From positions 10,031 through 74,030 of IMG/VR virus record IMGVR_UViG_3300031772_002569: 64,000 bases of DNA; one strand, 5' to 3'. The first letter of the stretch is position 1. Each line of letters starts with the position of its first letter. The stretch comes from a virus. The notes under the pieces are model-generated. The model did no database searches, was not told where the DNA came from, and saw only the letters and a list, made by a program, of their open reading frames with translations. The position numbers were made by a program, and so were the translations under genes. Of this stretch, positions 43,234 through 64,000 are shown in pieces.

Positions 43234-43421
43234 ATATTTGTTTGTTTATGTCTATAAATAGTTTATCATCATTATAACAAATTGACAACTTATTTTTTAC
43301 TTGTACTTTAGAGCGAGAGCGAAACAATGAGCGATAGCGAGGTGTAGCGACTGGCTCGATTGAATAAAGTAGAAAGTTATGATCAAATATAACTGGTTTA
43401 AAAGTACAAAGTAAATACTAG

Positions 43422-43488
43422 GTACTGAGTACTGAGTACTGAGTACTGAGTACTGAGTACTGAGTACTGAGTACTGAGTACTGAGTAC
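43422..43488. repeat. tandem repeat (GTACTGA)9 plus a partial unit
   Basis: Nine perfect 7-mers plus GTAC, then a degenerate copy to about 43500; intergenic. Confidence 0.95.
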
Positions 43489-43505
43489 ACTGGAGTACTG
43501 GAAAT

Positions 43506-43700
43506 TTATTTAGGAAGGAATCTAGTTTTTAAAATTTTAGATTTTATCTCTCTTACAAACTTAGGATATTCTACTGATCCGGTTTCGTGCCAGGCATTTG
43601 ACCCACAACGTTGTCCGTAGTCAGGCCCAGGTAAAACATGAGATAAATTTTCGTCATCGTATTCAACGAAAATCGGCTTCACTCTTGATGATTTTTTCAT
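43506..43700 (-). CDS. small hypothetical protein
   Basis: 64-aa ORF with GGAG upstream. Confidence 0.5.
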   Translation of the reverse strand: MKKSSRVKPIFVEYDDENLSHVLPGPDYGQRCGSNAWHETGSVEYPKFVREIKSKILKTRFLPK

Positions 43701-43768
43701 ACCAACTCCACTGGTAATAAATATAAAAATCTATTACAAATAGTGAAAGTTAATATGTAAATTTTCTA

Positions 43769-44533: not shown

Positions 44534-45609
44534 TCTCCAACTATTTTTTCATCCCAATACAGAATGTTTACAATTTGTTTGTTTCTGAAAAACGGATGTG
44601 ATTTAATATAATCATCAACTTTAGGGTTATGATGCCAAGAAGAATGTTTTGTATCGTCGGAAATCATAACCTCAATCTCCTTACCCCTAACTACGTAAAT
44701 TAATATAGAAACGTAATCCGCGTCAATACGTTTTCCAAGAAAATTTCTAACTTGATAATGATATGCGACCATTCGATTCCACACATAGGCATTTTTGCCT
44801 GAAATAATCAATCCATACTGGTCATGTGCTACACATTCTTTTACCTCCCTATCGGTTGGGTCTATAAAAACTTCTACATAATCTGACTTGCCGGCGATGT
44901 TTGTCGTGAAAGAACTCAAAAACGATTCCCCTATGGTTCCCAGATTATGGATTCCCTTCGCCTGATAATCTCTTATGTCATTTAAAGTGGAATCCCCACC
45001 TTCTACGAACCAACGAGACATAGAACCCAGGCCATGAATAAAATTCAAAAGTTGGTCCATTTTTATAATTTTCTTTTCTGGCTCCCGTTCAGACTCAACA
45101 CCAACAGCTATTTTATACAAAGTCCTACTCCTATCGCTATACCTACCATTTCCTCCGGATTCCATCTCTCCAGTGTTTCTAAACCTGTTGGAACCCGACT
45201 TATCAGATATAAAAACGAACCACCTATCCCATTCCTCTTCTGTTATATCTTTGTATTCATCCTTTTCAAAAAAGCTAGCAGCCGCATTACCATCTTTTAT
45301 ATCACTGTTGATTAAAATTTTAATGATTGTAGTTCTAAGAATTGACCAAATCTTTTCTAATAACTTATCATCAACCCTACTATATTTTACAAATTTTGCC
45401 CAAACCAATTTCAAATCCCTCGCCGGAACCAACTTCCAAGATTGATGTTTTTGACCAGATTGAAATTCTTGCCTAACATCTTCCTCGACATCCGTGAAAT
45501 CCCTCACTAACTCACGTGCATGGGGGTTATGACCACCGATATTAAGATGAAGTTGATCAGATTCACCAATACACTGGTCAACCATCTTTTGTAATTCAGA
45601 TTTTTTCAT
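44515..45609 (-). CDS. hypothetical protein with MKKSELQKMVDQCIGE leader (two domains split at TIGE)
   Basis: Leader-type N-terminus; TATTTATT upstream. Confidence 0.75.
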   Translation of the reverse strand: MKKSELQKMVDQCIGESDQLHLNIGGHNPHARELVRDFTDVEEDVRQEFQSGQKHQSWKLVPARDLKLVWAKFVKYSRVDDKLLEKIWSILRTTIIKILINSDIKDGNAAASFFEKDEYKDITEEEWDRWFVFISDKSGSNRFRNTGEMESGGNGRYSDRSRTLYKIAVGVESEREPEKKIIKMDQLLNFIHGLGSMSRWFVEGGDSTLNDIRDYQAKGIHNLGTIGESFLSSFTTNIAGKSDYVEVFIDPTDREVKECVAHDQYGLIISGKNAYVWNRMVAYHYQVRNFLGKRIDADYVSILIYVVRGKEIEVMISDDTKHSSWHHNPKVDDYIKSHPFFRNKQIVNILYWDEKIVGDWKGLT

Positions 45610-45636
45610 CTTTTAATAAATATCAACCAATCAAAC

Positions 45637-45665
45637 AAAAAGGGTTCCCTTTCGGGAACCCTCTT
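45637..45665 (-). terminator. rho-independent terminator after the sheath gene
   Basis: agggttccc-GAAA-gggaaccct 9-bp stem with GNRA loop and U-tract on the minus strand. Confidence 0.88.
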
Positions 45666-45690
45666 CTAGCTTGCGCGGAACTGTAGGAGA

Positions 45691-48600: not shown

Positions 48601-48855
48601 TTCCTTTAAGTATTCTCCAGCAGTATATGGACCGTAGTAAACACCATCTGGAACACCGAACTGAGATTGAAGATCATTGATATCTGTTATGAGTTTTGGT
48701 GAAAATGCTGGACCTTTAGCGAAAGGTGCCACAACTGCAGCACCAATGTCAGCCACCCCTTGAGCGACCCCAGACAGGTCATTCTCACGCGTGAATACAC
48801 CGGGACTCACAATTCTATCTTCTGGACTGAAACGTCCTCCTTCTTGGATTGGCAT
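45691..48855 (-). CDS. contractile tail sheath protein (T4 gp18-like)
   Basis: SPGVFTRENDLS, KGPAF, YYPWV, VPPS, WYAPAGLNRG, RDTLY..KVNPI, WGQKTLQ, LDRISVRRLL, PTRTSEFI. Confidence 0.95.
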   Translation of the reverse strand: MPIQEGGRFSPEDRIVSPGVFTRENDLSGVAQGVADIGAAVVAPFAKGPAFSPKLITDINDLQSQFGVPDGVYYGPYTAGEYLKERGLVTVVRVGGLTGYKQNYPFVIWGVKGTWNRNGSAGALVSGSSYITLSGSIAANYSQSVSISSGTLTLNSASVTVTFQSVAADDTALSITSLSGSVLYSGQTVSLGNTTITSTLFSTGSNLSASIVAGTFSGSFSSDVTLNFNNGGAAPFLSVHLISGSFYTSTGSCGVPTIQLRGVLSGSFGKYDGTFTSNGQPTFDPCTNTWASASTAELKVLAVLGDTLYGGISDLVAPGFVNSSLISASSNVNASSITSDFNLTLKSTNSSTAIGTYQFSLNPSSTKYITNVFGLSATAGDPATQVSGQKIEASYLYKVFNNAIADVYANNTVWAITGSVLPDGVNFIGNPLDFTDEFSRDLTNGDSEFSITHASTPWIVSQKIAPWQSGQNPTRFRLFKVHTLSDGTITNKQFKIEISNVKLAGTVAGSDWGSFTLTVRKYSDSDKRPQIMEQFNNVNLNPDSSNFIARRVGDRYNYINFQGKIIEFGTYTNNSKNVRIEMIDSVVPESVVPYGFEALSVPVNSSAGNWIPTLKYSKASVYGLNPGKYPSGIVFDDAPTGADAELSSLYPTSSLGIGAADDNIQYLSPLPEFGSYGSIGRNILFSLDDDYRLYGVGTGSLVTGSNIVPSEYDSANESTYVKMRKFVVGFQGGFDGQSPATPINVGGDISPGNTQGLNCTSISSAGSIAYNQAITALGNADEFDINLIVVPGIVHQHHPYVTNLVVDMCEARGDCFFIMDLYVDDGNPTSGQIDEVVADAAEYDTNYAGAYYPWVKILDTNTNKIVTVPPSVVLPSVFAANDKVAAEWYAPAGLNRGGIAIAVQVTDRTTHEERDTLYEGKVNPIASFPGQGVVVWGQKTLQNDSTALDRISVRRLLINLKKFVASTSKFLTFEQNTSATRNKFLSVVNPYMESVQQRSGLYAFFVKMDEENNTPDIIDRNVLYGQIYIKPTRTSEFIVLDFNVLPTGASFPNA

Positions 48856-48928
48856 GGCTTAGTCTTTCTCCTTTATATCAACCGATATAATGTGGTTATT
48901 AAAATTAGATTTCATATTACGAACTAAA

Positions 48929-48936
48929 TATAAATA
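48929..48936 (-). promoter_or_regulatory. putative late promoter TATTTATA for the sheath gene
   Basis: Recurrent octamer. Confidence 0.6.
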
Positions 48937-49082
48937 TATTGTACTTTTTCAAAAGATAAATGAAAATAAATTATTAAACAACATTTTAACGGTATTAGTT
49001 ATAGAATCACGTTCTCCAAATTTTTCAGGAGAAAGAAACTTTATAATTAATTCTGTTTAGTATCAACCAACTTGTAACATTT

Positions 49083-49385
49083 TCATTTCTTTTCAGGAAC
49101 AAAAAGACCTTTATTTAAATCTAAATATCCCTCACCATAAACCTTTATCAACTTGTCTATTAATCCATTTTCCATGTTTTTCAGATTATTCCATTCATCC
49201 TGAAGGTCTTGTTCTTTTTTGGTTAGATTTTTTATAATTTCATCCACCTGCATTTTTTCAAGATATAAAAGACCCATCGAAAAAGTTTTCTCTTGAAACT
49301 TGTCTTGTAACATCTTAATTTCTGCCAATTCATTCTCTGATATTTTTATTGGTTCACTCATAATACATTGTTGTTTTAGATACAT
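49083..49385 (-). CDS. small coiled-coil hypothetical protein
   Basis: Likely starts at MSEPIK; YGEGYLDLNKGLF C-terminus. Confidence 0.7.
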   Translation of the reverse strand: MYLKQQCIMSEPIKISENELAEIKMLQDKFQEKTFSMGLLYLEKMQVDEIIKNLTKKEQDLQDEWNNLKNMENGLIDKLIKVYGEGYLDLNKGLFVPEKK

Positions 49386-49411
49386 ACAACGTCCACCCGT
49401 ATTTAGATTTA

Positions 49412-50353
49412 TTATTTTAAATCTACGTTAGGATCAAGAACTATCGGAGGAGAAGGAATCACTTCATCCTTTGGAAGATTTGGATAATTCTGATTACGAA
49501 TCTTCTCTGAGTTAGTATCTGCAATATCAGAAAAATTAAAATCAGACAAAACCACTTCGGTTCCCATAACGATTTTCTTTGGAGTAAAGTGTTTCTGTGT
49601 AGTAGGATGATGTCCACTCATATTATCTATGGTATCAGGCAACAAATATCCATAGACTATTAAATCAAATTCGGTCTTTACAATCCTATCTTGGTCAACC
49701 TGTAATTCCACCGTATGAGAAAACGAATCTATCTTCGTTCTGAACCTAAGACCATTTGCAACTCCCCAATAATCTTCGGTTTGAAAATTAATCTTCTCCA
49801 TAATGGAATTGATTTGTTCTATGTATTCCGTCCATATAATAAAATGATAAGTAAATATCATGTGGTCGGGCATAATCACATCATATACTTCATTTACAGG
49901 AACATTCTTACCTATCAATACATTAAAAGGAGTATATCGATTTTTTGTAGAATATTTCTTCAAAACAGGATAATGAAGATAACGATTGAACGTCATTAGA
50001 TTCTGATTTTTTTCAGAATTAGTTCTCTTAAACACCAAAGCAGGTAAAATCATTTTACCATTGTAATCTCGTATGATTCCATCCTTTTGTATTGATTTCC
50101 ACTTTTCAGGAGAAGCGTAATATAGAGGAACTTTTATCTTCTTACCATCATCAGTAACTTGAATCTCAAACGTTTCAAGTTGTTTCATTACTGTAGTATC
50201 AATATCTATTAACCTTACAGTAAAATCTTTTTGTATGTCTGTATCCCTGCGGACCTGTTCCGCACGATTTACATCCTTGCGTTCCTCGCCACGATTTACT
50301 CCTTCATTGGAATAATTCGGTGCTGGATTATTTGGATTTCCCTGCCAAGCCAT
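49412..50353 (-). CDS. tail terminator / sheath stabiliser (T4 gp15-like)
   Basis: KVPLYYASPEKW, LPAL, PDHMIFTYHFIIWTEYIEQIN.I.E, F.L.VYGYL; between neck and sheath. Confidence 0.72.
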   Translation of the reverse strand: MAWQGNPNNPAPNYSNEGVNRGEERKDVNRAEQVRRDTDIQKDFTVRLIDIDTTVMKQLETFEIQVTDDGKKIKVPLYYASPEKWKSIQKDGIIRDYNGKMILPALVFKRTNSEKNQNLMTFNRYLHYPVLKKYSTKNRYTPFNVLIGKNVPVNEVYDVIMPDHMIFTYHFIIWTEYIEQINSIMEKINFQTEDYWGVANGLRFRTKIDSFSHTVELQVDQDRIVKTEFDLIVYGYLLPDTIDNMSGHHPTTQKHFTPKKIVMGTEVVLSDFNFSDIADTNSEKIRNQNYPNLPKDEVIPSPPIVLDPNVDLK

Positions 50354-50357
50354 AATA

Positions 50358-50831
50358 TTATTTCTGTCTTTCCACTAATGACAACTTAGACAATCTCGAA
50401 TAATGAGTATTAACAATAATTGAATGGGATTTTTCTGCAATTCCACCCAAAAACTGTTCTTGAACAACATTATCAATTTCATGATATCTATTGTTAAATT
50501 GAATTATATCTCCATTTTCTGGATAAATATTTACAAGTTGCAACATTTTTTCACGAAGCTTAAATACTACTGTTTGGTTTCTATCAGAACCAAAATCGTC
50601 GAACGAAGTATCAATATCAGCCCTATCAACTAACGCCGTAATTTCTACTCCGGGATAATACATTTTTCCGGATTCAGGAGACGACTCTCCATACACATTC
50701 ACTTTAATTTGTTGTGCACAGATTTTGAACAACAATACTTCAGTTTGAATAATTTCCCCCATCAATTCTCCATTAAAAGAATTGATTAAGTTTATATCCC
50801 TATCACTGAAAAATCTCCCTAATAATCCCAT
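50358..50831 (-). CDS. head closure / neck protein (T4 gp14-like)
   Basis: NVYGES, YPENGDII.FNNRYHEIDNV; position after the gp13-like gene. Confidence 0.7.
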   Translation of the reverse strand: MGLLGRFFSDRDINLINSFNGELMGEIIQTEVLLFKICAQQIKVNVYGESSPESGKMYYPGVEITALVDRADIDTSFDDFGSDRNQTVVFKLREKMLQLVNIYPENGDIIQFNNRYHEIDNVVQEQFLGGIAEKSHSIIVNTHYSRLSKLSLVERQK

Positions 50832-51589: not shown

Positions 51590-52759
51590 TTATCCTATAT
51601 AAATAAGCAATGGAACTCTCTTTAATGTATCTTGAACGAATTCAGCCTCCCTAGCGCGATCTTCCATTTGTTGTTTCTTGCCAGTGGCCTCAAGACTTTC
51701 CCTCAACTCGGTTATATATTTTTCTTTTTCCTGTTGTGCTTCATTTCTAAGTTCCGCACCATCGAGAGTAACCTCTCCTCCAGGAATAGGAATGGTTTGG
51801 TATTTTTGTCTAATTGAACCAAGTAGTTCCTTACATAGAGCAAGAAAATACTTCCTAATCCATTGCTTACTAACATCGTTGATAGATCCATACACGATGT
51901 TATTATATGGAATATTTGAGAAATCGGATACAAATTGTCCAGCAGAACCAGATTGGAAAGACCCGCTAAATCGTTCATTCTTTACGACATAATCGAAATA
52001 TATACGAAACTGACTCTGAGGTATAGGAAACAATCTTAATTTATTGTTGACTATTTCAAAGGAAAAAGCAGACTTACGAACCATATCATTGAATTCAATA
52101 GCTTGACCACGAAGCAAATCTTCGAAAATAGGAGTCATAAGAAACTGAACAGCGGGAGAATATGCACCAAATCCCAACTCATTCAAAACATTAGAATAAC
52201 TCATACCAGTCATGGAGAATGGATCGTAAATACGAGCCATAGCAGGAGTTCTTTCATTAAAAACCCTCATCACATCGATTTTATTAAAACTTTCAGATAC
52301 GTTACCCCACAAGGATTGAATGTCGTATGTTTGTTGATATGGAACAGTTGTAATAGATCCGCGTTTCCAATCGGTATTTCCACCAACACCAACTTCTGTT
52401 CCGTATCCCTTTGCCAACTCCACGATAACAGACATTGGGGTTCCGGTTACGTTTTGTCCGGACAAATTACCTATTTGATTAATATTCTGTCCTTGAAATA
52501 CCTGAATGTAATTACGAATATTGAACTGATTTAACTGAGCACCAAACTCATTGACAGCTTCTTCAAAACACGCATAGAAATTTTTATCCAACATTTCTAT
52601 ATCAACAACGGGATATCCCAACCTCAAAGCTGCCCATACAGCCGCGCCCATCGCGTCTGATTGAAATTCTATATCAGAATCATAAATTCCGAATGGTGTG
52701 CTGCTAGAGACTGCCGAACCGGACCCGGGCCACCTCACCCTATCTTGGTCAATTAACAT
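51590..52759 (-). CDS. neck / head-tail adaptor protein (T4 gp13-like)
   Basis: LRLGYPVVDIEM, CFEEAV, WIRKYFLALCKELLG.IR.KY..IPIPGGEVTLDG. Confidence 0.85.
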   Translation of the reverse strand: MLIDQDRVRWPGSGSAVSSSTPFGIYDSDIEFQSDAMGAAVWAALRLGYPVVDIEMLDKNFYACFEEAVNEFGAQLNQFNIRNYIQVFQGQNINQIGNLSGQNVTGTPMSVIVELAKGYGTEVGVGGNTDWKRGSITTVPYQQTYDIQSLWGNVSESFNKIDVMRVFNERTPAMARIYDPFSMTGMSYSNVLNELGFGAYSPAVQFLMTPIFEDLLRGQAIEFNDMVRKSAFSFEIVNNKLRLFPIPQSQFRIYFDYVVKNERFSGSFQSGSAGQFVSDFSNIPYNNIVYGSINDVSKQWIRKYFLALCKELLGSIRQKYQTIPIPGGEVTLDGAELRNEAQQEKEKYITELRESLEATGKKQQMEDRAREAEFVQDTLKRVPLLIYIG

Positions 52760-53730
52760 ACAACCCCCTTATTATCAGATACATACATCATATTATGATT
52801 GAATTTTTTGATAGGAAAAACTTTGGTTTTATCTTTATTCCAATCATACCAATCTTTTTCCCACATATAATAAATATGATAACCTAATTCGTTTAATCTA
52901 TTAAACTTTTTGATTGTGTTATCATATAATTCTCCAAAAGTTTTATGACATTTTTTATTAAATTTAGAATGTTCATATCGTATGGGATTTCCATGATAGT
53001 AATCTCCTAAGAATTCATAAATCTTTTTTCCTTTTATTCCATCTACTTTAAACGGATGAATTACCTTTTGTCGATTTTCTATCAAATCAGGTATTCTAAT
53101 ATAGTTTAAAAATTCAATTTCTGGTTTAGATATTTGTGTGACACATTTTAAACATCCCTTTCCTTCCATGTGTCCCCTCGCTCTCTGATAAAACCATCCA
53201 TGAATAGGACATTTTATTTTGACTTTAGTTCTATTATTGATATAATTTACTTGGGAATAGTCATACTTGTTTTTGTGAATAATGTATGATTGTTTTATAA
53301 ATTCATCTTTAGTCAATCTTACAGTTCCACCACACAACGGACATCCATCTTCATTTAAATGATCATTTGGAGATTGTGAAAATTTTCCGTGTAATTTACA
53401 TATAATTACCACCTTTTCCCTATTATTATCACCATATTTAACAAATGAATAATCATACTTATTTGTATGACATTTAACTGCTTTTTTTATAAATGATTCT
53501 GTAGTATCTCTAAATTTAATAGATAATTTTTGATTCTTACACTTTGGGCAACCACTTTTTTTACCAATATGATTATCAGAAGAAACCATAAAAGTTCCGT
53601 GAATTTTACAACAAACTTGTAACTTCAATCTAGCAGAAACATAGATTGTATTAGAATAGTCATATTTTTTGTTGTGAACTTCTTTAGATCTCTTTATAAA
53701 TTCCTCTGTAGTTATTCTTGATTTCATCAT
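52753..53730 (-). mobile_element. free-standing homing endonuclease-like gene (three KYDYS...C..HG Zn-ribbon repeats plus Vsr-like nuclease)
   Basis: Three repeats of FIK.....H..KYDYS...Y......I.C..HG.F.....H....GC..C, then KVDG...YEFLGDYYHG...YMWEKDW. Confidence 0.8.
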
Positions 53731-53760: not shown

Positions 53761-53768
53761 TATTTATA
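53761..53768 (+). promoter_or_regulatory. putative late promoter TATTTATA for the enzyme array
   Basis: Same octamer, on the + strand 20 nt before ATG 53789. Confidence 0.6.
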
Positions 53769-53788: not shown

Positions 53789-55558
53789 ATGAAAATTATA
53801 TTATACAATTTAATAAATGAGATTTTGTTAGAAACATCCGACGCAAAATCCACCTTCATTCTCGGTAGAGTTTCCGATGATGGAGAGGTTGACAAATGGG
53901 AATTTGATGATACGGTAACTGCCACACATCCTTCGACTTGGTATTCAAGTCACTATGAACGTTGGAGATATTACGCAGGCAGTCAATACATTTATTGGTG
54001 GAGTCTGCCGTCTCAAATTCAAAAAGAATCAGTAGAATATTTCATAGGATCAAGAGGATTTGATGTAAAAGGGCATAAAGCCAACATACACTTTTTATCA
54101 GATTTTAGTAAAGTAACAGGTTATAAACTCACAGAAAATATGTTAAATGAAGGAAGAAAAGAAAAAGCAGCAGAAGACTTTATCAAACAGACCATAAAAG
54201 GAACTCAGTGGCAAGGTAAAGTTTTCATAGCTGGTGGTTACGTCCGAGATGAATTTATGGGCAAAGACCCAAAGGATTTGGATTTGTTAGTAAATACACC
54301 AAACGGAGGAATTGAATTTGCAAACTGGATAACCAGAAAAATTGGTGCATACAAAGACGGAAGCAATCCGGTAACGTTTCCTCGTTTCGGAACAGCCAAA
54401 TTTAATCTTTTCGGTGTAACTCATGACGGAATTGATTTGAGTGATATGGATATTGAAGCAGTAATGCCTCGTAAGGAACAATACACAGCAGGAAGTAGAA
54501 AGCCAGATGTTACTGGTGGAGAATTAAAAGACGACGTAGAAAGACGCGACTTCACAGTTAACTCATTATTAAAAGATTTAAGTACCGGAGAAATCTTAGA
54601 TTTGACGGGTATGGGAAAAGATGATATCAAAAAAGGTATTGTCAGAACTCCATTAAATGCCGATAAGATTTTTACCGACGACCCTCTTAGAATGTTACGT
54701 GCGGTTCGTTTTGCCATGAAATACAAATGGAAACTTCCCATGTTCATGATTCGTGCATTAAAGAAGAATGCTCCACAACTTAAAAACATTTCACAGGAAC
54801 GTATTCGTGATGAATTGGACAAGATGTTAATGACAACGAACCCCCACGGTTCAATAAAACTCCTAAAGGTTGCTGGATTGTTATCCCATGTCATTCCTGA
54901 ACTTATACCAGCAGTAAAGATGAAACAGAACATCCATCACAAACACGATGTATTTCATCATATTCTTGATGTTCTATCTAAGTCTAATCCTGTACTAGTT
55001 CAGAGATTAATGGCCTTATTTCATGATATTGGAAAAACTGTAACCAAGAGTGTGACTCCAACAGGAGTTCATTTCTACGGTCACGAAATGGTTGGATCCG
55101 ACATGGTAGAATCCATCATGACAAGGTTGAAATACCCAAGAGAATTAATCGATGCTGTAAAATTAGGTGTAAGAAACCACATGCGATTAAAGTCAGCAGG
55201 AGATACAGGAATAAATATATCAGACAAAGCACTTAGAAAATTCAAATCTGAAATTGGAGATAAGATAGAAGACGTATTAGCAGTAATCCATGCTGATAAC
55301 ATTTCTCATGCGGATGCTTCAGCGATGCCTAATCAAGTAAACAATCTCAAGGTTAGACTCGATAACCTAAATATGAACGTTGCCGCTGGTGGAAAACCAA
55401 AACTTCCTATTACCGGAAACGATTTACAATCCATCGGATTAAAACCAGGTCCAATTTACAGTGAAATAATGAAAGCTGTAACAGAAGCTTGGTTTGAAAA
55501 TCCAAACATTACAAAGGAACAGGCATTGGAAATTGCAAAGTCTGTAGCAAAAGTATGA
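53789..55558 (+). CDS. cca: CCA-adding tRNA nucleotidyltransferase with HD domain and an extra N-terminal module
   Basis: AGGYVRD...KDLDL, FGTA, DVERRDFTVNSL, DDPLRMLRAVRF, ISQERIRDEL, HHKHDV..H, ALFHDIGK. Confidence 0.9.
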   Translation: MKIILYNLINEILLETSDAKSTFILGRVSDDGEVDKWEFDDTVTATHPSTWYSSHYERWRYYAGSQYIYWWSLPSQIQKESVEYFIGSRGFDVKGHKANIHFLSDFSKVTGYKLTENMLNEGRKEKAAEDFIKQTIKGTQWQGKVFIAGGYVRDEFMGKDPKDLDLLVNTPNGGIEFANWITRKIGAYKDGSNPVTFPRFGTAKFNLFGVTHDGIDLSDMDIEAVMPRKEQYTAGSRKPDVTGGELKDDVERRDFTVNSLLKDLSTGEILDLTGMGKDDIKKGIVRTPLNADKIFTDDPLRMLRAVRFAMKYKWKLPMFMIRALKKNAPQLKNISQERIRDELDKMLMTTNPHGSIKLLKVAGLLSHVIPELIPAVKMKQNIHHKHDVFHHILDVLSKSNPVLVQRLMALFHDIGKTVTKSVTPTGVHFYGHEMVGSDMVESIMTRLKYPRELIDAVKLGVRNHMRLKSAGDTGINISDKALRKFKSEIGDKIEDVLAVIHADNISHADASAMPNQVNNLKVRLDNLNMNVAAGGKPKLPITGNDLQSIGLKPGPIYSEIMKAVTEAWFENPNITKEQALEIAKSVAKV

Positions 55559-56403
55559 TCAAATTAAAAAATCTCATAGATGAAAATGTAATAGACACAC
55601 TACAAACGATTGGTGATTTTAGTAAAGGTTCTTCTTTTACTAATAAATCAGACCGTGCATTAGTCACACATCCTGTAGCCGTCCAAAAGATAAAAGATTT
55701 TTTCAAGAATACAAAAGAGAACTTTGACTTATATTTCGTAAATACAAAACATGCTAGAAAATATATGGAACTAGGAGAAGTTAAAGAGAGTTTTATTTTT
55801 GATGATTTAAAAGTTACTCCTGACCAATTAAAAAACGGAGAAATTAATCATAATAACATTACAGTATTTTTTACCAACAACAAAGGAGATGAAAGAGCAC
55901 CTTTTACTCCTTGGATTATGGCACATAGACTCGGCCATGTAATAAGGCGAGTCTATACATGGGAAAAAGAACTAAATCCCTGGATAAATAAACATCTTAT
56001 TGACATATTGAATTCATACGGAGTATCACCAGTAAAATACTCCCCCTATAGTTACGGAAATGATGGAAGTGGTAATTATGCATCTTTTAGACGATATGAA
56101 TTGGCCAAACGTCATCTATGTGAAACCCTCGGAACATTCAAAAGTGCAAGAAATAAAAATCTAAGAAATTATGGAGAGTTTAACTATGAATTATTTGCAC
56201 AATATCTAAAAGACGGAAAGATAACTCTAAACAATCTTCCTGATGTCTTATTGATAGGACACGCTGCGTTTGGAAGAAAAGATCTAAGAAGATTGAAAAA
56301 TAGGGAACATGCAGATGAGTCTTTGACCGAACTAAGAGAGAATTATGAGTATCATGCAGAATCAGTATTGAGCGAATGTGTAGGTAAAATATTTGTGATG
56401 TAA
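55555..56403 (+). CDS. MIKLK-leader protein with degenerate zincin-like motif
   Basis: Leader MIKLKNLIDE; WIMAHRLGHVI and downstream ELFAQY. Confidence 0.75.
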   Translation: MIKLKNLIDENVIDTLQTIGDFSKGSSFTNKSDRALVTHPVAVQKIKDFFKNTKENFDLYFVNTKHARKYMELGEVKESFIFDDLKVTPDQLKNGEINHNNITVFFTNNKGDERAPFTPWIMAHRLGHVIRRVYTWEKELNPWINKHLIDILNSYGVSPVKYSPYSYGNDGSGNYASFRRYELAKRHLCETLGTFKSARNKNLRNYGEFNYELFAQYLKDGKITLNNLPDVLLIGHAAFGRKDLRRLKNREHADESLTELRENYEYHAESVLSECVGKIFVM

Positions 56404-56404
56404 C

Positions 56405-57088
56405 ATGATAAAGTATGCAAAATCTAAATTTGGCAGAATTCGTTTTGAATATAAAGATGCCGCTGACAAATCAGTAAACAAAGGATGGGTGGTAGATATG
56501 GTGAATGCATATATTGACGACAAGCCAATAGGATATTTAAAAATATCTTATGTTCCCGATTCAAATGTCAAAGACGTATTTCCGGATGTAATTCATTATC
56601 TTGGTTCGGAACATAAAGGATTTAGTAAATTAAGGGCTGCTTTAATAAAAGACGATAAAAAAAATATAACTCGTGCATTATCACAAATGCAAGACCCCTG
56701 GAGTCAATGGATAGAAAATCTCGAAAGCAGAGGGGAATTAAAAGGAATGGATCAAAACTGGTGGGATGAACAATATAAAAGATTAGAAAAGGAAGTCACA
56801 GAAAGACATAAAAAAGATTACGAACAATTTTTGGATGATGTCCATAACAAACCATTGGTGGATTACATAAAAGTAGAAAAGGATTATCAACAAGGCGGAA
56901 TTGGTTTGGGATTGTATATTGCTGGAGCTACATGGATGGCGAAAAAGAGAATGTGTTTATTTGCTTCATCATTACAATCTCCTGAGGCTAAAAAAAGTTG
57001 GGATAAGATGAAACGAATTGGAATGCCCATAAAAACCGTAAAACAAAAAAACGGACGAATTAGAACTTGTTTAGATTATAGAAAGTAA
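56405..57088 (+). CDS. GNAT-like acetyltransferase
   Basis: IGYLKI...VDYIKVEKDYQQGGIGLGLY...SSLQSPEAKKSW, a GNAT acetyl-CoA loop pattern with a helical insertion. Confidence 0.65.
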   Translation: MIKYAKSKFGRIRFEYKDAADKSVNKGWVVDMVNAYIDDKPIGYLKISYVPDSNVKDVFPDVIHYLGSEHKGFSKLRAALIKDDKKNITRALSQMQDPWSQWIENLESRGELKGMDQNWWDEQYKRLEKEVTERHKKDYEQFLDDVHNKPLVDYIKVEKDYQQGGIGLGLYIAGATWMAKKRMCLFASSLQSPEAKKSWDKMKRIGMPIKTVKQKNGRIRTCLDYRK

Positions 57089-57089
57089 C

Positions 57090-57497
57090 ATGATAAAACT
57101 AAAAACATTAGTAACAGAGAATTTAACAAAGAGAAAGTATTCAGGAGTATCATTGGATTCTGAGTCTCATAATAAGTTAAAAACACACTTCTCTGATAAA
57201 ATTCCAGAAGGATGGGAAATCATAGCCCATCACATGACCATAAATCCATTTGGTCCCACACCAGAAGAATTGTTAAATAAGAATGTCACATTAAAAGTTA
57301 CCGAGGTAGGTAAAAGCGACAAAGCCTTGGCAGTAAAAGTATCAGGATATGAAGGCAAAACAAACAACAAGTTTCCTCATATAACGATTGCTATAGATAG
57401 AAATGGTGGAGCCAAACCCAAAGATTCAAATGATATTGTTCATTGGGAGCCAGTAAGAGATGATATTTATCTTAAAGGAACCATAAAGGATTTATGA
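57090..57497 (+). CDS. 2H phosphoesterase (tRNA-ligase CPDase-like) with MIKLK leader
   Basis: Two HxT motifs (HHMTI, PHITIA) and KPKDSNDI..W. Confidence 0.78.
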   Translation: MIKLKTLVTENLTKRKYSGVSLDSESHNKLKTHFSDKIPEGWEIIAHHMTINPFGPTPEELLNKNVTLKVTEVGKSDKALAVKVSGYEGKTNNKFPHITIAIDRNGGAKPKDSNDIVHWEPVRDDIYLKGTIKDL

Positions 57498-57787
57498 TAA
57501 AATTAAAATCATTACTAACAGAAAATCAAAGAACATTCCGAGGCGACTGCCGAACTATTCTTGATAGAGATGATTTGTTTGATGACGCCACAGAAATGGC
57601 GCAAGCGGTCGAGAATAGTGAGGCCATAACATATCAACAATTTATGAGTTTGGCAGACCTAACCGGGATAAATAAACTTTTCAAATTGAAATTAAGAAGA
57701 GAAACCGACCATTTTGATTTTGCACAGTATAAGGATTTGGTATGGGCATACGATAAAGATACTGACATACACTATTTCTTTTTATGA
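57494..57787 (+). CDS. MIKLK-leader hypothetical protein
   Basis: Leader MIKLKSLLTE; C-terminal YDKDTDIHYFF. Confidence 0.75.
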   Translation: MIKLKSLLTENQRTFRGDCRTILDRDDLFDDATEMAQAVENSEAITYQQFMSLADLTGINKLFKLKLRRETDHFDFAQYKDLVWAYDKDTDIHYFFL

Positions 57788-58341
57788 TAAAACTAAAGGA
57801 TATACTTTTAGAATCTGTACAGGCAATAAACCCGCCTGCACAGATTCAACCCCATATTCAATCTGTATTTGATAGATCTTTTATAGATTACATAAAATTT
57901 GTAGAAAATGGGAATCGTGTGGGATATGATAAAAATAAAAAACTTTGGTTCCCCTATGCGAAAGCAGAGAATGGAAACGTTGTCATTGCTTATGGTCACA
58001 AAAGCAAATCACCAATTGAGACAAAATCACTAAAAAAAGGCATAACCGATGACCAAGCAGAAAGACTGTTAATATCGGATTTAGAGATTGCAAAACAATT
58101 AGTGAACAAATACATTGAAAAGAAATATAAGGTAAAATTGTTACTGGATAAGAATCAGAATGAAATTCTTACAGACTTTGCATTCAATTTAGGTGGATTA
58201 GAAAAATTTCCCAAATTTGTAGATGCTGTCTTGAAAAAAGATTGGAAAGTAGTCAAAAAAGAATACAAAAGAAACACGGATGGAAACATGTTAACCAAGA
58301 GAAATCAAGAATTTTTTAATAGATATTTAACACAATTATGA
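57784..58341 (+). CDS. phage lysozyme (GH24-like) with MIKLK leader
   Basis: IKFVENG, IAYGH, GITDDQAERLLISDL, LTDFAFNLG..L.KFPKF..A....DW, RN. Confidence 0.8.
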   Translation: MIKLKDILLESVQAINPPAQIQPHIQSVFDRSFIDYIKFVENGNRVGYDKNKKLWFPYAKAENGNVVIAYGHKSKSPIETKSLKKGITDDQAERLLISDLEIAKQLVNKYIEKKYKVKLLLDKNQNEILTDFAFNLGGLEKFPKFVDAVLKKDWKVVKKEYKRNTDGNMLTKRNQEFFNRYLTQL

Positions 58342-58880
58342 TAAGCCTATCAAAAATATTAAGCGAAGAGAGAACCAGTGAGAGTATAGAATACGGGTGT
58401 CTCATGGCCGAAATACCTGCATCCATTTGTAACAAATTAGTTACATTCGGAAACAAATTAATTTCGGAAGAAGATTTGTATAAAGAAGGTGAAGAATTTG
58501 GTAGAGAAAAAGAATGTCATGTAACCATCAAATACGGATTCACAGGAAATTTAAATGCAGAAGATATAAAATCAATATTGGATGGGGTGGTAGATTTTAA
58601 AATATCAATCAATAAAATTGGAATGTTTTCGTCAAAAGATAAACCATTTGATGTCGTAAAATTTGACGTGGTAAAAGATGAAGCTTTGATGAAATTGAAT
58701 AAGAGATGTAATGAATTTCCTCACGAGGATACCTATCCTGGATACAATCCACATGTAACTATTGCCTATGTCAAAAAAGGTAAATTTAAACATGGTGAAA
58801 TACCTATTAATTTGGTGATACCAATACATACGGTTTGTTATTCTACTGTAGATAATAAAAAATCCTATTACAAGGTATGA
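58338..58880 (+). CDS. 2H phosphoesterase, Acb1/T4 gp57B-like, with leader
   Basis: YGCLM, CHVTIKYG, FDVVKFDV, YPGYNPHVTIAY; leader MISLSKILSE. Confidence 0.78.
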   Translation: MISLSKILSEERTSESIEYGCLMAEIPASICNKLVTFGNKLISEEDLYKEGEEFGREKECHVTIKYGFTGNLNAEDIKSILDGVVDFKISINKIGMFSSKDKPFDVVKFDVVKDEALMKLNKRCNEFPHEDTYPGYNPHVTIAYVKKGKFKHGEIPINLVIPIHTVCYSTVDNKKSYYKV

Positions 58881-59659
58881 TTAAACTTAGAGATTTAATT
58901 TTGGAAGGAGAGAACGATAGGATACAATCCGAGGTAGAATCCCTACAAAAAAATCTATATCAAAAATATCCAGAATTACAAGACCTACACATCTACATAC
59001 AATCTAATGGAACATTGTTCATTGGTTCAATAAAGGTTAAATTAGAGTCTCGCAGACAAGGAATAGGCAAAAATGTAATCAGAGACATAAAAAAATTTGC
59101 CGACGACCATAATCTAATAATTGTTCTAGCTCCGGAGCCAGAAAGAGGATACAAAAAGAAGTTAGATAGATTTTATAAGGATTTAGGATTCATTCCAAAT
59201 CAAGGAAGACAAAAAAATTATGGATTATCTTCTTTCTTCGGTAAAACAATGTATCGTAAACCCGGAGTAAAGGAAGACATAAATGAAGAAATTCCTGATG
59301 TTTTTTATCATGCTACGTTCAATGAACTGATACCATCAATCAGTAATAAGGGATTGGTTCCAGGAGGCATAGATTATCAAAATTTTGAAGGATGTGAATC
59401 GGGAGTTTATCTGTCTGACGATTACTCTTTTGCGGGAAGTATGATAGAAGGCGGTTCTGAAAATGAAGATATTCCAGATGAATGGTTTGATAATATAGTA
59501 GTAATATTGATTGACCCAAATAAACTAGATTTGACCAAGATGGAAAAAGACCCACATGTAAACATATCCGCCGACGACGAACACATACCTCGTTCTTTTA
59601 TATATAAAGGTATTATACCAACCAGCGCTTTTATAGAAATAGTCGATTTCAGTGGATAA
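58877..59659 (+). CDS. GNAT plus ADP-ribosyltransferase/Tpt1-like fusion with MIKL leader
   Basis: IKV....RRQGIGK...LDRFYKDLGF (GNAT); linker VKEDINEE; FYHAT...SI...GL.P...GVYLS...IYKGIIP (ART fold). Confidence 0.72.
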   Translation: MIKLRDLILEGENDRIQSEVESLQKNLYQKYPELQDLHIYIQSNGTLFIGSIKVKLESRRQGIGKNVIRDIKKFADDHNLIIVLAPEPERGYKKKLDRFYKDLGFIPNQGRQKNYGLSSFFGKTMYRKPGVKEDINEEIPDVFYHATFNELIPSISNKGLVPGGIDYQNFEGCESGVYLSDDYSFAGSMIEGGSENEDIPDEWFDNIVVILIDPNKLDLTKMEKDPHVNISADDEHIPRSFIYKGIIPTSAFIEIVDFSG

Positions 59660-59709
59660 TTTTAAGAATGTATATTGTTACTTTTTAACATAGATATTTA
59701 TATTTATAC

Positions 59710-60769: not shown

Positions 60770-62488
60770 ATGCCACAATTCGCATCAAGAGATTTTACAG
60801 ACCAATATATCTCGACCAGTTATCAAGACGTATTACAACAATACATTCCAAATACTGGTTCAGCATATATTCTTGATGGAGTTGGTAATGTAGTTTTTCA
60901 ATTTTCCGCTTCTGCTTTAGGTAGAGATTTAATCACCAGTGATCTTACGGCCTCGATGACGGTTCTATCGTCTTCATACGCAGTCACGGCTTCTTTTGCT
61001 TTAAATGCCGGTGGAGGAAGTGGAACTACTTTATTTACAGGTTCAACCTATCAGATAACAGCTAGTTGGGCGATTAATACTTTAACGTCATCCCTAACAC
61101 TATTAACACAATCGAATGTAGCTATATCAGCATCATGGGCATCACAATCATTTGCTGCCTTTTCGGCCATTAGTAGTAGTTGGGCATCAGCATCAATTTC
61201 TTCATCTTATGCACTAACAGCCTCCTTTGCTTTGAATGCCGGTGGTGGAAGTGGAACTACCTTATCCACAGGGTCAACATATCAGATAACATCATCGTGG
61301 GCAATATCATCTATATTTTCCAATACGAGTAGTTACTCTATATTTGCAGAGATAGCAGGCACATCAAGTTTATCGGCAAATGCCATAACTGCATCATTTG
61401 CATTAAATGGTCCATTTACCACATTATTCACTGCATCCACATATCAGATTACTTCAAGTTGGGCCAACGATTCTTTACGTTCGTTGTCGGCAATATCAGC
61501 ATCTTGGGCATCTTCAAGTATATCATCTTCTTATGCAATCACCGCCTCATTCGTGGATGCATCTGGATTCTCTGCTTTAGTCATCCCTCTTCAATTTACA
61601 TACAAAAATAGTATATCTTCTGCCGACCCAGGTAAAGGTAATTTCCGATACAACAGTTTAACCTCCGGTTCAATAACCGAAATTTACATCGACCAATTTA
61701 CCGGCGGTGGATTAGATGTAAGTGGAATAATTGATTCATTAAGAAGTGGAAGCTATAGATTATACATACAACAAAAAAATGATGCAACTAAAGCGTCTTT
61801 ATTTTCTATTTCCAATGCTGTTGTAGATAACACTGGATGGTTTACAATTCCTGTTGTTCACATCTCATCGGCCGACAATGGATTGCCAATCAATAACTCA
61901 GACTGTGCGTTTTACATCATAAATAGAAATTCAATTGTTGATGGAAATACTTACAATATTACCGCAAGTTGGTCTATAACGTCATCTTATTCGTTATTTG
62001 CCGTATCATCCTCCTATTCCGCTACATCGTCGATAACATTGATAACCCAATCTAATGCAGCGTTATCAGCCTCTTGGGCATCACAATCATTTTATTCAGT
62101 AAGTAGTAGTTGGGCATCATCAAGTCTATCTTCGAGCGTGTCGGTATCTTCGTCATACGCAGTAACATCAAGTTATTTGATTTATCCTAGTAGTTTGGTA
62201 AGTGCAGCCGGTAACGCTACTACATCTTTTATATTACAAACAAGCAGTATAAATAACGGAATTTTTATAAATTACACCATGAATGATGGTGGTAATTTCA
62301 GAGCAGGAAATGTGGTCGTTCTATACAACACAAATTCGGTAAATTTAGCAGAAACAACAACAACAGATATTGGTAACAGCAGTGGATTAACAATACAAGC
62401 AAACATATCCAATACATTCGTTACCGTGTCAGCAGTCAATAATACATCAAACAATTTTAATATAAAATATCATTATGATGTTTTATAA
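60770..62488 (+). CDS. Ser/Ala/Thr-rich repetitive fibre protein
   Basis: Many SSSYA/SASWA/TASFA repeats, a duplicated ASFALNAGGGSGTTL.TGSTYQIT block and globular inserts. Confidence 0.75.
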   Translation: MPQFASRDFTDQYISTSYQDVLQQYIPNTGSAYILDGVGNVVFQFSASALGRDLITSDLTASMTVLSSSYAVTASFALNAGGGSGTTLFTGSTYQITASWAINTLTSSLTLLTQSNVAISASWASQSFAAFSAISSSWASASISSSYALTASFALNAGGGSGTTLSTGSTYQITSSWAISSIFSNTSSYSIFAEIAGTSSLSANAITASFALNGPFTTLFTASTYQITSSWANDSLRSLSAISASWASSSISSSYAITASFVDASGFSALVIPLQFTYKNSISSADPGKGNFRYNSLTSGSITEIYIDQFTGGGLDVSGIIDSLRSGSYRLYIQQKNDATKASLFSISNAVVDNTGWFTIPVVHISSADNGLPINNSDCAFYIINRNSIVDGNTYNITASWSITSSYSLFAVSSSYSATSSITLITQSNAALSASWASQSFYSVSSSWASSSLSSSVSVSSSYAVTSSYLIYPSSLVSAAGNATTSFILQTSSINNGIFINYTMNDGGNFRAGNVVVLYNTNSVNLAETTTTDIGNSSGLTIQANISNTFVTVSAVNNTSNNFNIKYHYDVL

Positions 62489-62514
62489 CAATATTTAAAA
62501 GGAGAACATAGAAT

Positions 62515-63279
62515 ATGGCAAATGAACTAAAAGTAAAAAATGGTTTAATAATCGAGGGCCAAACATTTGGTAATGGGTTTACCGCTTCGGTTGTTGCTGC
62601 AACCGTAGGATTCTTCGGTACGGCCAGTTGGGCAGCCAAAACCGTGTCGGCCTCATTCTCTGATTTCGCAACCACGGCGTCATTTGCATTAAATTTTAAT
62701 CCTAATGCTACAGCCTCTTATGCATTGACCTCTAGTGTATCAGTATCCTCGTCATTTGCAACATCGGCATATACAGCATCCTATTTAACTCCAGGAACAT
62801 ATCAGATAACTTCCTCATGGTCAAATAATTCATTATCGGCAAATGTAGCCACATCCGCATCTTGGGCATCGGCATCAATATTCTCAAATGTAGCTATCTC
62901 CGCTTCATGGGCATCAGCATCAATAAGTTCGTCGTATGCCTACACGTCAAGTTTCTTAAATGGATTTAATTTCGATAATACTTCGTCGGTATTACCACAA
63001 ACATCTTCGTTGTTTTTAGTTGCTCAAAGAGAAACTGCATCTTACTTAGCAGCATTCTGTGATTACGCTGCTAATAGCGGAAGTAATATAAGGGCAGGAA
63101 CAATATTTGGAGCATGGATAAACAATACCGCATCATACGCAGAATATACAACCGTAGATGTCGGAGATACATCACAAGTAACCATGTCTCTAAGGGTAAC
63201 ACAATCAATGTTTCAACTCTTATCAACAGTATCAACCACGTCACCCTGGACAATAAGAACCACAATAAGATATATCTAA
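62515..63279 (+). CDS. Ser/Ala-rich fibre protein
   Basis: MANELKVKNGL N-terminus, ASWA repeats; C-terminal domain (N.RAG...T.D.G.TS) resembles that of the upstream fibre. Confidence 0.75.
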   Translation: MANELKVKNGLIIEGQTFGNGFTASVVAATVGFFGTASWAAKTVSASFSDFATTASFALNFNPNATASYALTSSVSVSSSFATSAYTASYLTPGTYQITSSWSNNSLSANVATSASWASASIFSNVAISASWASASISSSYAYTSSFLNGFNFDNTSSVLPQTSSLFLVAQRETASYLAAFCDYAANSGSNIRAGTIFGAWINNTASYAEYTTVDVGDTSQVTMSLRVTQSMFQLLSTVSTTSPWTIRTTIRYI

Positions 63280-63320
63280 TAAAATAGATATAAATTCTGG
63301 AAAATGAAAGAATTTATAGT

Positions 63321-64000
63321 ATGGCATTCGAATTTGTAGCAAAAAATGGTTTAATAGTAAAAGGTGGTTCAGAGTTATCAGGTTCTCTTAACAATGGTCT
63401 ATCAAGTTTAACTACTGGTGTATATTCTCACGCAGAAGGATTAAATACTACAGCATCAGGAGATTTTTCTCATGCGGAAGGACGTTCTACTATAGCTAAT
63501 GGTGGTGCCCATTCTGAAGGTTTGGAAACAACAGCCGGCGGACTCTCTTGTCACTCGGAAGGTAGAGGAACATTAGCCAACGGCCTTTATTCTCACGCGG
63601 AAGGACAAATGACAGTTGCTGGAACGTCTATTCCTGGTGAAGGTTTAGGTCAACACTCAGAAGGATTTAATACTACAGCATCAGGAAACTATTCTCACGC
63701 AGAAGGACACTCATGTACAGCATCAGGAAGTTATTCTCACGTCGAAGGTTCATTCAATGTAGCATCAGGAGTGTCCTCACACGCAGAAGGATTAAATACT
63801 ACAGCATCAGGAGATTATTCTCACGCTGAAGGAAGTTCTACTATAGCTAATGGTAGTGCCCATTCAGAAGGATTTAATACTACAGCATCAGGAAGCTATT
63901 CTCACGCCGAGGGTTATTACTGTATTTCAAAAGGCCTTTATTCTCACGCGGAAGGACAAGTGTGTGTAGCCGAAGGAATATCCAGTCACGCCGAAGGTAG
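63321..64000 (+). CDS. fibre/adhesin with SHAEG repeats (YadA-head-like); truncated by window end
   Basis: Read manually from ATG 63321 (MAFEFVAKNGLIV...). About 14-aa repeats such as YSHAEGLNTTASG, open to the window end; absent from the ORF track because it has no stop. Confidence 0.85.
   Translation, partial: MAFEFVAKNGLIVKGGSELSGSLNNGLSSLTTGVYSHAEGLNTTASGDFSHAEGRSTIANGGAHSEGLETTAGGLSCHSEGRGTLANGLYSHAEGQMTVAGTSIPGEGLGQHSEGFNTTASGNYSHAEGHSCTASGSYSHVEGSFNVASGVSSHAEGLNTTASGDYSHAEGSSTIANGSAHSEGFNTTASGSYSHAEGYYCISKGLYSHAEGQVCVAEGISSHAEG

Follow-up and report, generated by a model that had tools for sequence, protein, structure and literature searches.

Within a 64,000-nucleotide stretch of the virus record IMGVR_UViG_3300031772_002569 (positions 10,031 to 74,030 of that record; this whole stretch is hereafter the window, and its own numbering is used), an operon of eight plus-strand genes at 53789-59659 encodes a varied set of proteins, seven of which begin with a common leader of about ten residues. 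We lean, with some reserve, toward reading this operon as a leader-addressed and variable arsenal of enzymes that would probably be packaged in the capsid and injected into the host. We infer packaging, cleavage, ejection and the substrate of every enzyme from the identities of the domains, the common leader and its spread among related phages, the protease gene that those relatives carry and the shuffling of modules at the leader.

According to the mechanism that we propose, the operon would be a late-expressed, hypervariable array of cassettes for enzymes addressed to the head. The leader of about ten residues on each product or fused module most likely binds the prohead core, a protease of the T4 gp21 type would remove it after the Glu, and the mature enzymes would ride inside the capsid until they pass, together with the DNA, into the next host. 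The payload would be a mixed arsenal and not a single pathway: the CCA-adding/HD enzyme may rebuild tRNA 3' ends hit by host immunity; one or both 2H enzymes may destroy alarm signals made of cyclic oligonucleotides or else open 2',3'-cyclic phosphates; the GH24 lysozyme may help to breach the cell wall; and the GNAT and ADP-ribosyltransferase (ART)-fold domains may modify host targets using acetyl-CoA and NAD+, as T4 Alt does. A preliminary description of the locus had listed a CCA/HD enzyme, two 2H proteins, a lysozyme, two GNATs and an ART-like domain as cargo, and all seven of these calls hold at the superfamily level. Genes are referred to below by their first nucleotide.

A common leader and its link to the head protease

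The leader reads MIKLKxL[LIV]xE, or in variant form MISLSKILSE or MKIILYNLINEILLE, and opens seven of the eight open reading frames (ORFs) of the operon and no other ORF in the 74 kb contig, which bears out the earlier description of these proteins as tagged. The Ile, Leu and Glu codons of the different copies differ synonymously, and therefore selection acts on the peptide. We mapped the domains of the window onto two sets of related loci, 21 with the CCA enzyme as anchor and 28 with cargo 55555; across these loci the leader heads dozens of unrelated ORFs. A complete relative of 365 kb (G003, loci L036-L045) has it on 10 of its 831 ORFs (about 1%), with seven of the ten in the syntenic locus beside the neck genes. 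It is also found on the first genes of operons and on minus-strand genes that lie among the neck genes.

The Glu that closes the leader is invariant in the 55555 family (E10), where it immediately precedes the start of the conserved domain in 33 members, and residues 1-9 are disordered in the AlphaFold2 (AF2) model of 55555 (predicted local distance difference test, pLDDT, 89.7). It is missing from distant homologues of 57090, and therefore was added onto an older domain. Where modules have been fused, x-x-E remnants are kept at the borders, as in the CCA enzyme (aa 113-121) and the GNAT-ART protein (aa 131-138) of the window, and again in the related locus L001, at the junction of a GNAT with a lysozyme and at that of an N-terminal module with a 55555-type domain.

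The leader looks like a T4-type signal for capsid targeting and cleavage, because its last residues are [LIV]-x-E, the model shows it as disordered and it occurs in phages whose relatives encode Peptidase_S77, the T4 gp21-family protease (80-94 bits in G001, G002 and G003). Head proteases of the T4 type cleave after Glu, for example in T4 Alt at ITE-6 and LTE-619 (PMC5694885), and the T4 internal proteins are a diverse anti-defence set with only the capsid-targeting sequence in common (PMC3012670). Two head-module proteins that flank the S77 gene of G003 themselves open with leader-like sequences, KLRNLLNLTE and LKLIISE (341660-342790 and 343723-344988), and these starts fit recognition of such sites by the S77 protease.

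An analogous case is found in the cultured phage Atu_ph07, whose gp53-63 open with leaders of the MRWEQLTE type and are all present in the published table of virion proteins detected by electrospray ionisation tandem mass spectrometry. The leaderless CCA enzyme (gp18) and lysozyme (gp141) of the same phage are not in that table. By analogy, Atu_ph07 supports a link between leader and virion. Within this group, gp55-62 (43318-50592, L079) form a tandem series of at least eight paralogues, each about 255 aa long, that carry the MRWEQLTE-type leader and were detected in the virion, and several of them have a YRG motif reminiscent of R-S-E ADP-ribosyltransferases.

The CCA-adding enzyme and tRNA 3' ends

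The first gene of the operon (53789-55558, plus strand, 589 aa) encodes a protein that we assign, from its profile matches and motifs, to the class II CCA-adding tRNA nucleotidyltransferases with an HD domain. All of its Pfam matches exceed their cut-offs (PolyA_pol head domain 68.4 bits, RNA-binding domain 56.8, HD 27.5, tRNA_NucTran2_2 28.9), as does HDIG (30.6 bits against a cut-off of 27.6), and the top NCBIfam model is that of CCA tRNA nucleotidyltransferase (TIGR02692, 234.7 bits, positions 29-459 of 466). The motifs GGxVRD, DxD, RRDFTVN, DDxxRxxRxxRF and HD are intact. Models of PcnB-type poly(A) polymerases also match the nucleotidyltransferase region (108.8 bits), and the choice among addition of CCA, of A only or of poly(A) lies beyond what the sequence can tell.

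The protein is itself a composite. It begins with the variant leader MKIILYNLINEILLE, continues with an N-terminal module of about 100 aa and an internal leader remnant, KLTENMLNE (aa 113-121, nucleotides 54125-54151), and ends with the CCA/HD enzyme proper (aa ~145-580). In 14 of the 21 related loci the match to 53789 starts at residue 116-121, which is this internal junction, and some of these genes begin there with a clean leader. The Trp/Arg-rich module of about 100 aa precedes the CCA enzyme in the window (53834-54124) and a 55555-type domain in L001 (12438-12850); as judged from these two sequences it is mobile, with an x-x-E junction behind it both times. A more distant arrangement is seen in the record LR756501.1 (145887-165257, L050), where a CCA enzyme 58.7% identical to that of the window lies within a protein of 1179 aa and the neighbouring genes open with another common leader, of the MI-KFK-FE type, which suggests that different lineages have their own versions of the same addressing idea.

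Why a phage of this kind would carry such an enzyme can be approached through the tRNA genes of its relatives. The complete relative G003 has 53 tRNA genes at 128814-295096, and all 53 encode the CCA end; therefore, the enzyme would be needed for repair and not for synthesis, and we reject maturation of the phage's own tRNAs as its main role. This set of tRNAs includes one with an amber-suppressor anticodon (cta), and most of the genes are directly followed by ATTT, which may be a common processing signal. Repair of tRNA 3' ends is the role that we favour for the CCA enzyme. Host immunity directed at this part of the tRNA is documented: Cas12a3 cuts the CCA tails (PMC12851939), toxSAS enzymes pyrophosphorylate them (PMC11559606) and MenT toxins extend tRNA 3' ends (PMC10435456). 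A CCA/HD enzyme acting together with a cyclic phosphodiesterase on 3' ends is a coherent proposal, because 3'-end repair requires no ligase or kinase, and neither an RNA ligase nor a kinase was found in the operon and its locus. RNA ligases of the Rnl1 and Rnl2 types are encoded by the relatives elsewhere in their genomes, and we accordingly reject a complete heal-and-seal pathway of the T4 style within the operon.

Two 2H phosphoesterases

Both 57090 (57090-57497, plus strand, 135 aa) and 58338 (58338-58880, plus strand, 180 aa) carry the leader, and their two HxT motifs each place them in the 2H superfamily. In the minimal protein 57090, the motifs are HMT (aa 48-50) and HIT (aa 97-99), and both are invariant in 32 homologues. 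It resembles the cyclic phosphodiesterase (CPD) domain of Trl1: the match to tRNA_lig_CPD (PF08302) reaches 21.8 bits, just under the cut-off of 23, a precomputed PF08302 hit is on record for about 20 of 90 homologues, and the protein is so named in one source. The CPDase-like call made previously holds at the level of the 2H superfamily. Searches of the PDB with 57090, by phmmer and by profile, gave no match, and alignment of its family profile with that of the other 2H family by hhalign is weak (probability 19%). In six relatives, the 57090 domain lies at the C-terminal end of a larger protein (about 310-330 aa).

For 58338, which had been described as Acb1-like, the 2H assignment stands, and its narrower placement is less clear-cut. 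The motifs are HVT at aa 61-63 and again at aa 139-141, invariant in 10 sequences, and the best Pfam match is 2_5_RNA_ligase2 (PF13563, 35.9 bits against a cut-off of 27), followed by LigT (24.1) and Acb1 (19.8, against a cut-off of 27). When the profile of the family (ten members) is compared with the PDB, Acb1 entries are the only ones found (7t26, E = 6.5e-4; 9q2g, E = 2.5e-3), family and Acb1 have the stretch dYPDY-PH[IL]TL[AS]Y in common, and a homologue in L009 passes the Acb1 cut-off (29.8 bits). However, all ten members match both PF23474 (best E = 2e-8) and 2_5_RNA_ligase2 (best E = 2.8e-12), so that LigT-type models fit the family at least as well as Acb1 and the sequence cannot separate the two. 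The substrate of 58338 could thus be cyclic oligonucleotides or the cyclic-phosphate ends of RNA.

GNAT and ART-fold domains

The last gene of the operon (58877-59659, plus strand, 260 aa, leader-tagged) joins a GNAT domain (aa ~12-130) to an ART-fold domain (aa ~139-260) through the junction VKEDINEE (aa 131-138). The GNAT matches of the protein itself (19.2 and 18.4 bits) fall under their cut-offs, whereas those of homologues pass (30.9 bits against 27 in L012, 24.5 against 20.7 in L008). Together with the acetyl-CoA motif RRQGIG (aa 59-64), these allow us to assign the N-terminal domain to GNAT. In L001 a GNAT is fused instead to a lysozyme. The second GNAT, 56405 (56405-57088, plus strand, 227 aa), is the one member of the operon without the leader. 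It is a probable GNAT on weaker support than 58877, namely a score of 0.95 to viral GNAT clusters in the ESM Atlas and the motif QQGGIG (aa 162-167); neither a Pfam match nor a PDB sequence match (phmmer) was obtained. In the closest relative its homologue is a decaying gene, present as three short fragments in different frames (L001, 13655-13977).

The ART domain of 58877 belongs to a family with 311 representative clusters; in L001 and L006 it forms a gene by itself, which carries the leader and encodes 136-137 aa. From its AF2 model (pLDDT 92.2) we assign it to the fold of the H-Y type ADP-ribosyltransferase superfamily: the 16 best Foldseek hits are all Tpt1/KptA, and structural alignment with VIA-align gives Z 12.0 to Tpt1 (root-mean-square deviation 2.4 Å over 98 residues, 24% identity) against Z 7-8.3 to DarT, Arr and Scabin. 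The profile of the family matches Tpt1 with E = 1.6e-6, a match restricted to the motif LYH[AG]T...GL-P. In an alignment of 60 sequences Y14, H15, T17, G29 and Y48 are invariant or nearly so; a third catalytic residue was not identified.

The earlier designation of this domain as ART/Tpt1-like therefore needs qualification. The fold and the proximity to Tpt1 are upheld, but PF01885 stays below its cut-off and the model aligns only to residues 82-181 of the Tpt1 chain, the NAD+ lobe, with the RNA-binding lobe absent. In Tpt1, the N-terminal RNA-binding lobe carries most of the phosphate-binding catalytic residues. The model thus describes a domain whose nearest solved kin is Tpt1, yet which is not a Tpt1; removal of 2'-phosphates is not implied, because only the NAD+ lobe is present. 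A GNAT adjoining an ART is a signature pairing of polyvalent proteins, for which modification of host proteins has been predicted (PMC5512222), and the GNAT-ART pair of the operon fits host modification of that kind better than it fits tRNA repair. No cultured phage in GenBank carries this ART domain.

The lysozyme and the two unassigned cargos

The leader-tagged 57784 (57784-58341, plus strand, 185 aa) can be assigned to the GH24, or T4-type, lysozymes on the strength of its Phage_lysozyme match (PF00959, 39.6 bits against a cut-off of 22.3) and of E41 in the motif VEN, which is conserved in all 8 aligned sequences; the second acidic residue is variable. A phmmer search of the PDB gave no match. 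The lysozyme is present in 14 of the 21 related loci, where it mostly opens the operon and adjoins the neck genes. The preliminary description had suggested that this enzyme may act at entry and not at lysis, a role in entry being one that has also been proposed for the lysozyme domains of polyvalent proteins (PMC5512222).

The same description had singled out 55555 and 57494 as leading candidates for new anti-defence proteins. Cargo 55555 (55555-56403, plus strand, 282 aa, leader-tagged) belongs to a family that comprises at least 327 clusters (90% identity); nearly all of these carry the leader and none has a Pfam match. For the protein itself, Pfam, PHROGs, NCBIfam and PADLOC all gave no match, the BFVD returned only uncharacterised phage proteins and no cultured phage in GenBank carries it. 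Besides E10, its invariant residues are HRxGH (aa 124-128) and ExxxE (aa 208-212). Comparison of its AF2 model with the PDB gave nothing significant (best Foldseek E 0.65; best Z 4.4 in a VIA-align search of 48,161 chains), and the whole-length matches are weak ones to zincin peptidases (PPEP-3, anthrax LF and BACCAC_01431, Z 3.0-3.9), so that the model gives a hint of a zincin-like fold. We regard 55555 as the best candidate for new biochemistry in the operon.

Cargo 57494 (57494-57787, plus strand, 97 aa, leader-tagged) likewise has no family match in Pfam, PHROGs, NCBIfam or PADLOC, and neither the ESM Atlas, which was uninformative, nor its own model (pLDDT 0.39) added to this. It is homologous to a C-terminal domain that is fused to the Acb1-like 2H in L008, L011 and L012 (E = 1e-7 to 5e-10), and from these fusions it probably works with that enzyme.

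Cargo turnover among related loci

The composition of the operon changes markedly from one relative to another. Of the 21 loci in the CCA-anchored set, 14 have the lysozyme, 13 the Acb1-like 2H, 10 a GNAT of the 58877 type and 7 the CPD-type 2H, followed by the 57494 domain (6), the ART domain (4), and cargo 55555 and the 56405 GNAT (1 each). Seen from the other side, a CCA enzyme lies within 10 kb of the 55555 homologue in 8 of the 28 loci, and an Acb1-like 2H within the same distance in 8. The recurrent core among relatives is limited to the CCA enzyme, the lysozyme and the Acb1-like 2H; the other cargos are swapped, fused or decayed, and further tagged cargos appear, including a bona fide ART-PolyVal domain (97.7 bits), NUDIX, a phytochelatin-synthase-like peptidase, GP88 and more GNATs. 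Because recurrence is so uneven, the locus is best described as interchangeable cassettes with a small recurrent core and no fixed pathway. This bears on the earlier proposal that the cargos make up a coordinated counter-defence kit: the inventory on which it was built is sound, and repair is the favoured role of the CCA enzyme, but no fixed set emerges from the 21 and 28 loci, and the ligase and kinase of a full repair pathway are missing from the locus.

Comparison with known systems

The closest parallel is with the T4 internal proteins. IPI, IPII, IPIII and Alt are, like the products of the operon, unrelated proteins that have in common only a leader of about ten residues ending in [LI]-x-E; they too come from a hypervariable locus, in a phage that, like the operon's relatives, encodes a gp21-family (Peptidase_S77) protease. 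Of these proteins, Alt is a packaged enzyme that uses NAD+ and IPI* is an anti-defence protein (PMC3012670, PMC5694885). The leader of the operon has another sequence, and its role in packaging is a prediction. The T4 internal proteins are small and basic, whereas the cargo of the operon consists mostly of recognisable enzymes (CCA-adding, 2H, GH24, GNAT and H-Y-type ART), and, unlike the T4 proteins, its modules also occur joined in chains that retain leader remnants internally.

With the polyvalent proteins described by Iyer, Burroughs, Anand, de Souza and Aravind in 2017 (PMC5512222), the operon and the tagged genes of its relatives have their repertoire in common (ART, GNAT beside ART, 2H, lysozyme and NUDIX). 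ART-PolyVal itself is among the tagged cargos of relatives, PHROG 10691, a profile of 3925 positions, matches the GNAT of the window, and the predicted role, that of effectors injected with DNA, is the same. The architecture is different. A polyvalent protein is a single large polypeptide with 2-15 effector domains and, in most cases, a zincin peptidase for its own processing (PMC5512222), whereas the genes of the operon are separate, encode 97-589 aa and comprise at most two or three modules. In place of a giant polypeptide cut by its own zincin peptidase, the operon has a head-protease-type leader on each tagged gene. It has no HExxH peptidase; 55555 has HRxGH, and its zincin-like matches are the weak ones given above. 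A CCA-adding enzyme is not among the domains of phage polyvalent proteins listed in PMC5512222.

Individual members can be compared in the same manner. Acb1 (T4 gp57B; 7t26, 9q2g; PF23474) has the same 2H fold, two HxT motifs and dYPDY-PH[IL]TL[AS]Y stretch as 58338, which differs from it in a sub-threshold Acb1 score, in higher scores to 2_5_RNA_ligase2 and LigT, in its head-targeting-type leader and in the fusion, in relatives, to a 57494-type domain. Tpt1/KptA (PF01885) has an ART NAD+ lobe with LYH[AG]T...GL-P as in 58877, but is two-lobed, while the ART of the operon follows a GNAT or, in relatives, stands alone at 136 aa. Jumbo-phage CCA enzymes, 2H proteins and KptA-type ARTs have been catalogued before and predicted to act in tRNA-end repair and in the destruction of nucleotide signals (Iyer, Anantharaman, Krishnan, Burroughs and Aravind 2021; PMC7824862). 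In that survey they are ordinary cytoplasmic enzymes, whereas here they belong to one late set beside the neck genes with a leader of the capsid-targeting type. What is new is therefore the form, namely separate late genes, each with a head-protease-type leader and with the CCA enzyme among them; the functional themes are already in the literature.

Genomic setting

The window is part of a contig of 74,030 bases, for which CheckV estimates a completeness of 22%, and its G+C content is 33-41%. Markers of a T4-like myovirus are present (a tail sheath protein of 1054 aa, a head-tail adaptor, UvsX, a gp32-like single-stranded DNA-binding protein, DnaB and ribonucleotide reductase). The nearest relatives in IMG/VR are contigs of 250-365 kb, and therefore the phage of the window is a jumbo phage; in GenBank, the uncultured LR756501 (735 kb) comes closest. 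The eight ORFs of the operon are tightly coupled, with ATGA overlaps at five junctions, and diverge from the minus-strand neck genes.

A motif, TATTTATA, stands 21 nucleotides upstream of the first start codon of the operon, on the plus strand (53761-53768). The window has 20 copies of it against an expectation of 8.6 +/- 3.0, and none of 100 shuffles reaches 20. Most copies lie 6-75 nucleotides upstream of ORF starts on the coding strand, in front of the sheath gene, genes of the tail region, the cargo operon and 59710; TATTTATA is a candidate promoter motif of the phage, and its presence before both the operon and the sheath and tail genes speaks for the reading that we prefer. Its sites span 14561-62255 (for example 48929-48936, 53761-53768 and 59695-59708), and it is the reverse complement of the T4 late TATAAATA. 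A sigma-70 scan of the window was uninformative (18 sites against 33.5 expected), and no plus-strand terminator was found.

Two homing-endonuclease-like genes lie amid the structural genes (52753-53730, minus strand, PHROG 681/559; 38006-39505, plus strand, PHROG 3339), and one of them directly adjoins the promoter region of the cargo operon. At 60770-63998, three consecutive Ser/Thr/Ala-rich proteins contain repeat units resembling S-S-S-Y-A-x-T-A-S-F-A-L-N and SHAEG; these are probably tail fibres.

Weighing the alternatives

Three other explanations deserve comparison with packaging of a mixed arsenal. We consider it unlikely, though worth serious thought, that the operon encodes one coordinated tRNA pathway, in which the 2H CPDase opens the cyclic phosphate, the Tpt1-like enzyme takes off the 2'-phosphate and the CCA enzyme restores the tail, accompanied by a dedicated Acb1 against the signals of the cyclic-oligonucleotide-based antiphage signalling system (CBASS) and type III CRISPR. 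A CCA/HD enzyme, a CPD-type 2H, a fold like the NAD+ lobe of Tpt1 and an Acb1-like 2H do occur together in this operon, a relative has CCA encoded in its tRNA genes already, 3'-end repair can work with neither ligase nor kinase, and CCA enzymes, 2H proteins and KptA of jumbo phages have been proposed as parts of RNA repair (PMC7824862). Against this, the parts do not travel together (CPD-type 2H in 7, ART in 4 and 55555 in 1 of the 21 loci; CCA enzyme near 55555 in 8 of the 28), the ART domain is without the N-terminal RNA lobe of Tpt1 and is fused to a GNAT as in polyvalent proteins, and the LigT-type models match all ten members of the Acb1-like family at least as well. An injected version of the same idea would have a pre-loaded 3'-end repair set (CCA/HD enzyme, cyclic phosphodiesterase and NAD+-lobe enzyme), an Acb1-type nuclease and the 55555 enzyme disarm tRNA-tail immunity (Cas12a3, toxSAS, HEPN or MenT toxins) and CBASS-type signalling before phage gene expression begins; this, too, we think improbable, to a like degree.

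It is more doubtful still that the leader has nothing to do with packaging and is a translation-restart or expression element, or a handle for some other complex, with enzymes that would work late in infection as cytoplasmic proteins. The CCA enzyme would then maintain a large tRNA pool, the lysozyme would be the endolysin, and the 2H proteins would serve RNA repair with the Rnl-type ligases encoded elsewhere. Such a reading draws on the ATGA start/stop overlaps that couple the genes, on the 53 tRNA genes and Rnl1/Rnl2-type ligases of relatives, and on CCA enzymes in 455 phage records, mostly with no claim of packaging, to which the CCA enzyme of Atu_ph07, outside its virion, may be added. However, the leader also heads operon-first genes and minus-strand genes of the neck area, is kept as amino acids despite synonymous codon changes, persists as an internal remnant at fusion junctions, is closed by an invariant Glu directly before the folded domain and is confined to about 1% of ORFs, clustered by structural genes; the analogous leaders of Atu_ph07 do mark virion proteins. 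The possibility that the proteins are packaged and serve as offensive tools of takeover, with the 2H enzymes as Usb1-like RNases on host RNA, the CCA-family enzyme tailing or marking host RNAs and the GNAT and ART domains inactivating host proteins, strikes us as very unlikely. Virion-delivered 2H proteins unlinked to RNA ligases have been proposed as RNases or as degraders of 2'-5' or cyclic nucleotides (PMC5512222), no ligase is linked to this operon and the PcnB-type models do match 53789; but the CCA model is by far the best and covers the full length, the HD domain is typical of proteins of CCA addition and repair, and the closest solved relatives of 58338 are Acb1 proteins.

Several observations weigh against the packaged mixed arsenal that we prefer. 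The 74 kb contig, at an estimated 22% completeness, contains no head protease or capsid genes. The leader of Atu_ph07 has a different sequence, which makes it an analogy only, and 56405 sits in the operon untagged. The tagged lysozyme is the sole GH24 protein of the complete relative, in which Amidase_2 and SLT were not found (the search for GH19 was uncontrolled), a point that also favours the cytoplasmic alternative; it could be the endolysin, which would need a cytoplasmic pool. The substrates of the 2H and ART enzymes are likewise not fixed by their sequences, given that Acb1 and LigT models are inseparable for 58338, that the ART domain has no RNA lobe and that the locus has no ligase or kinase.

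Implications

Enzymes of the CCA, 2H and KptA types in RNA repair, 2H proteins directed against nucleotide signals, and injected ARTs, GNATs and lysozymes are all found in the literature already. If the leader does load heads, then the protein payload of giant T4-like phages would be far richer, and easier to read, than the internal proteins of T4, and it would include the first tRNA CCA-adding enzyme delivered by a virion, along with a phosphodiesterase of the Acb1-like type. In that case the leader would serve as a plain sequence flag with which injected effectors of anti-defence and takeover could be fished from the genomes of uncultured phages, among them the unnamed 55555 family with its at least 327 clusters. 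Host immunity directed at tRNA tails, such as that of Cas12a3 and toxSAS, would thereby be linked to a specific and testable countermeasure on the part of the phage.

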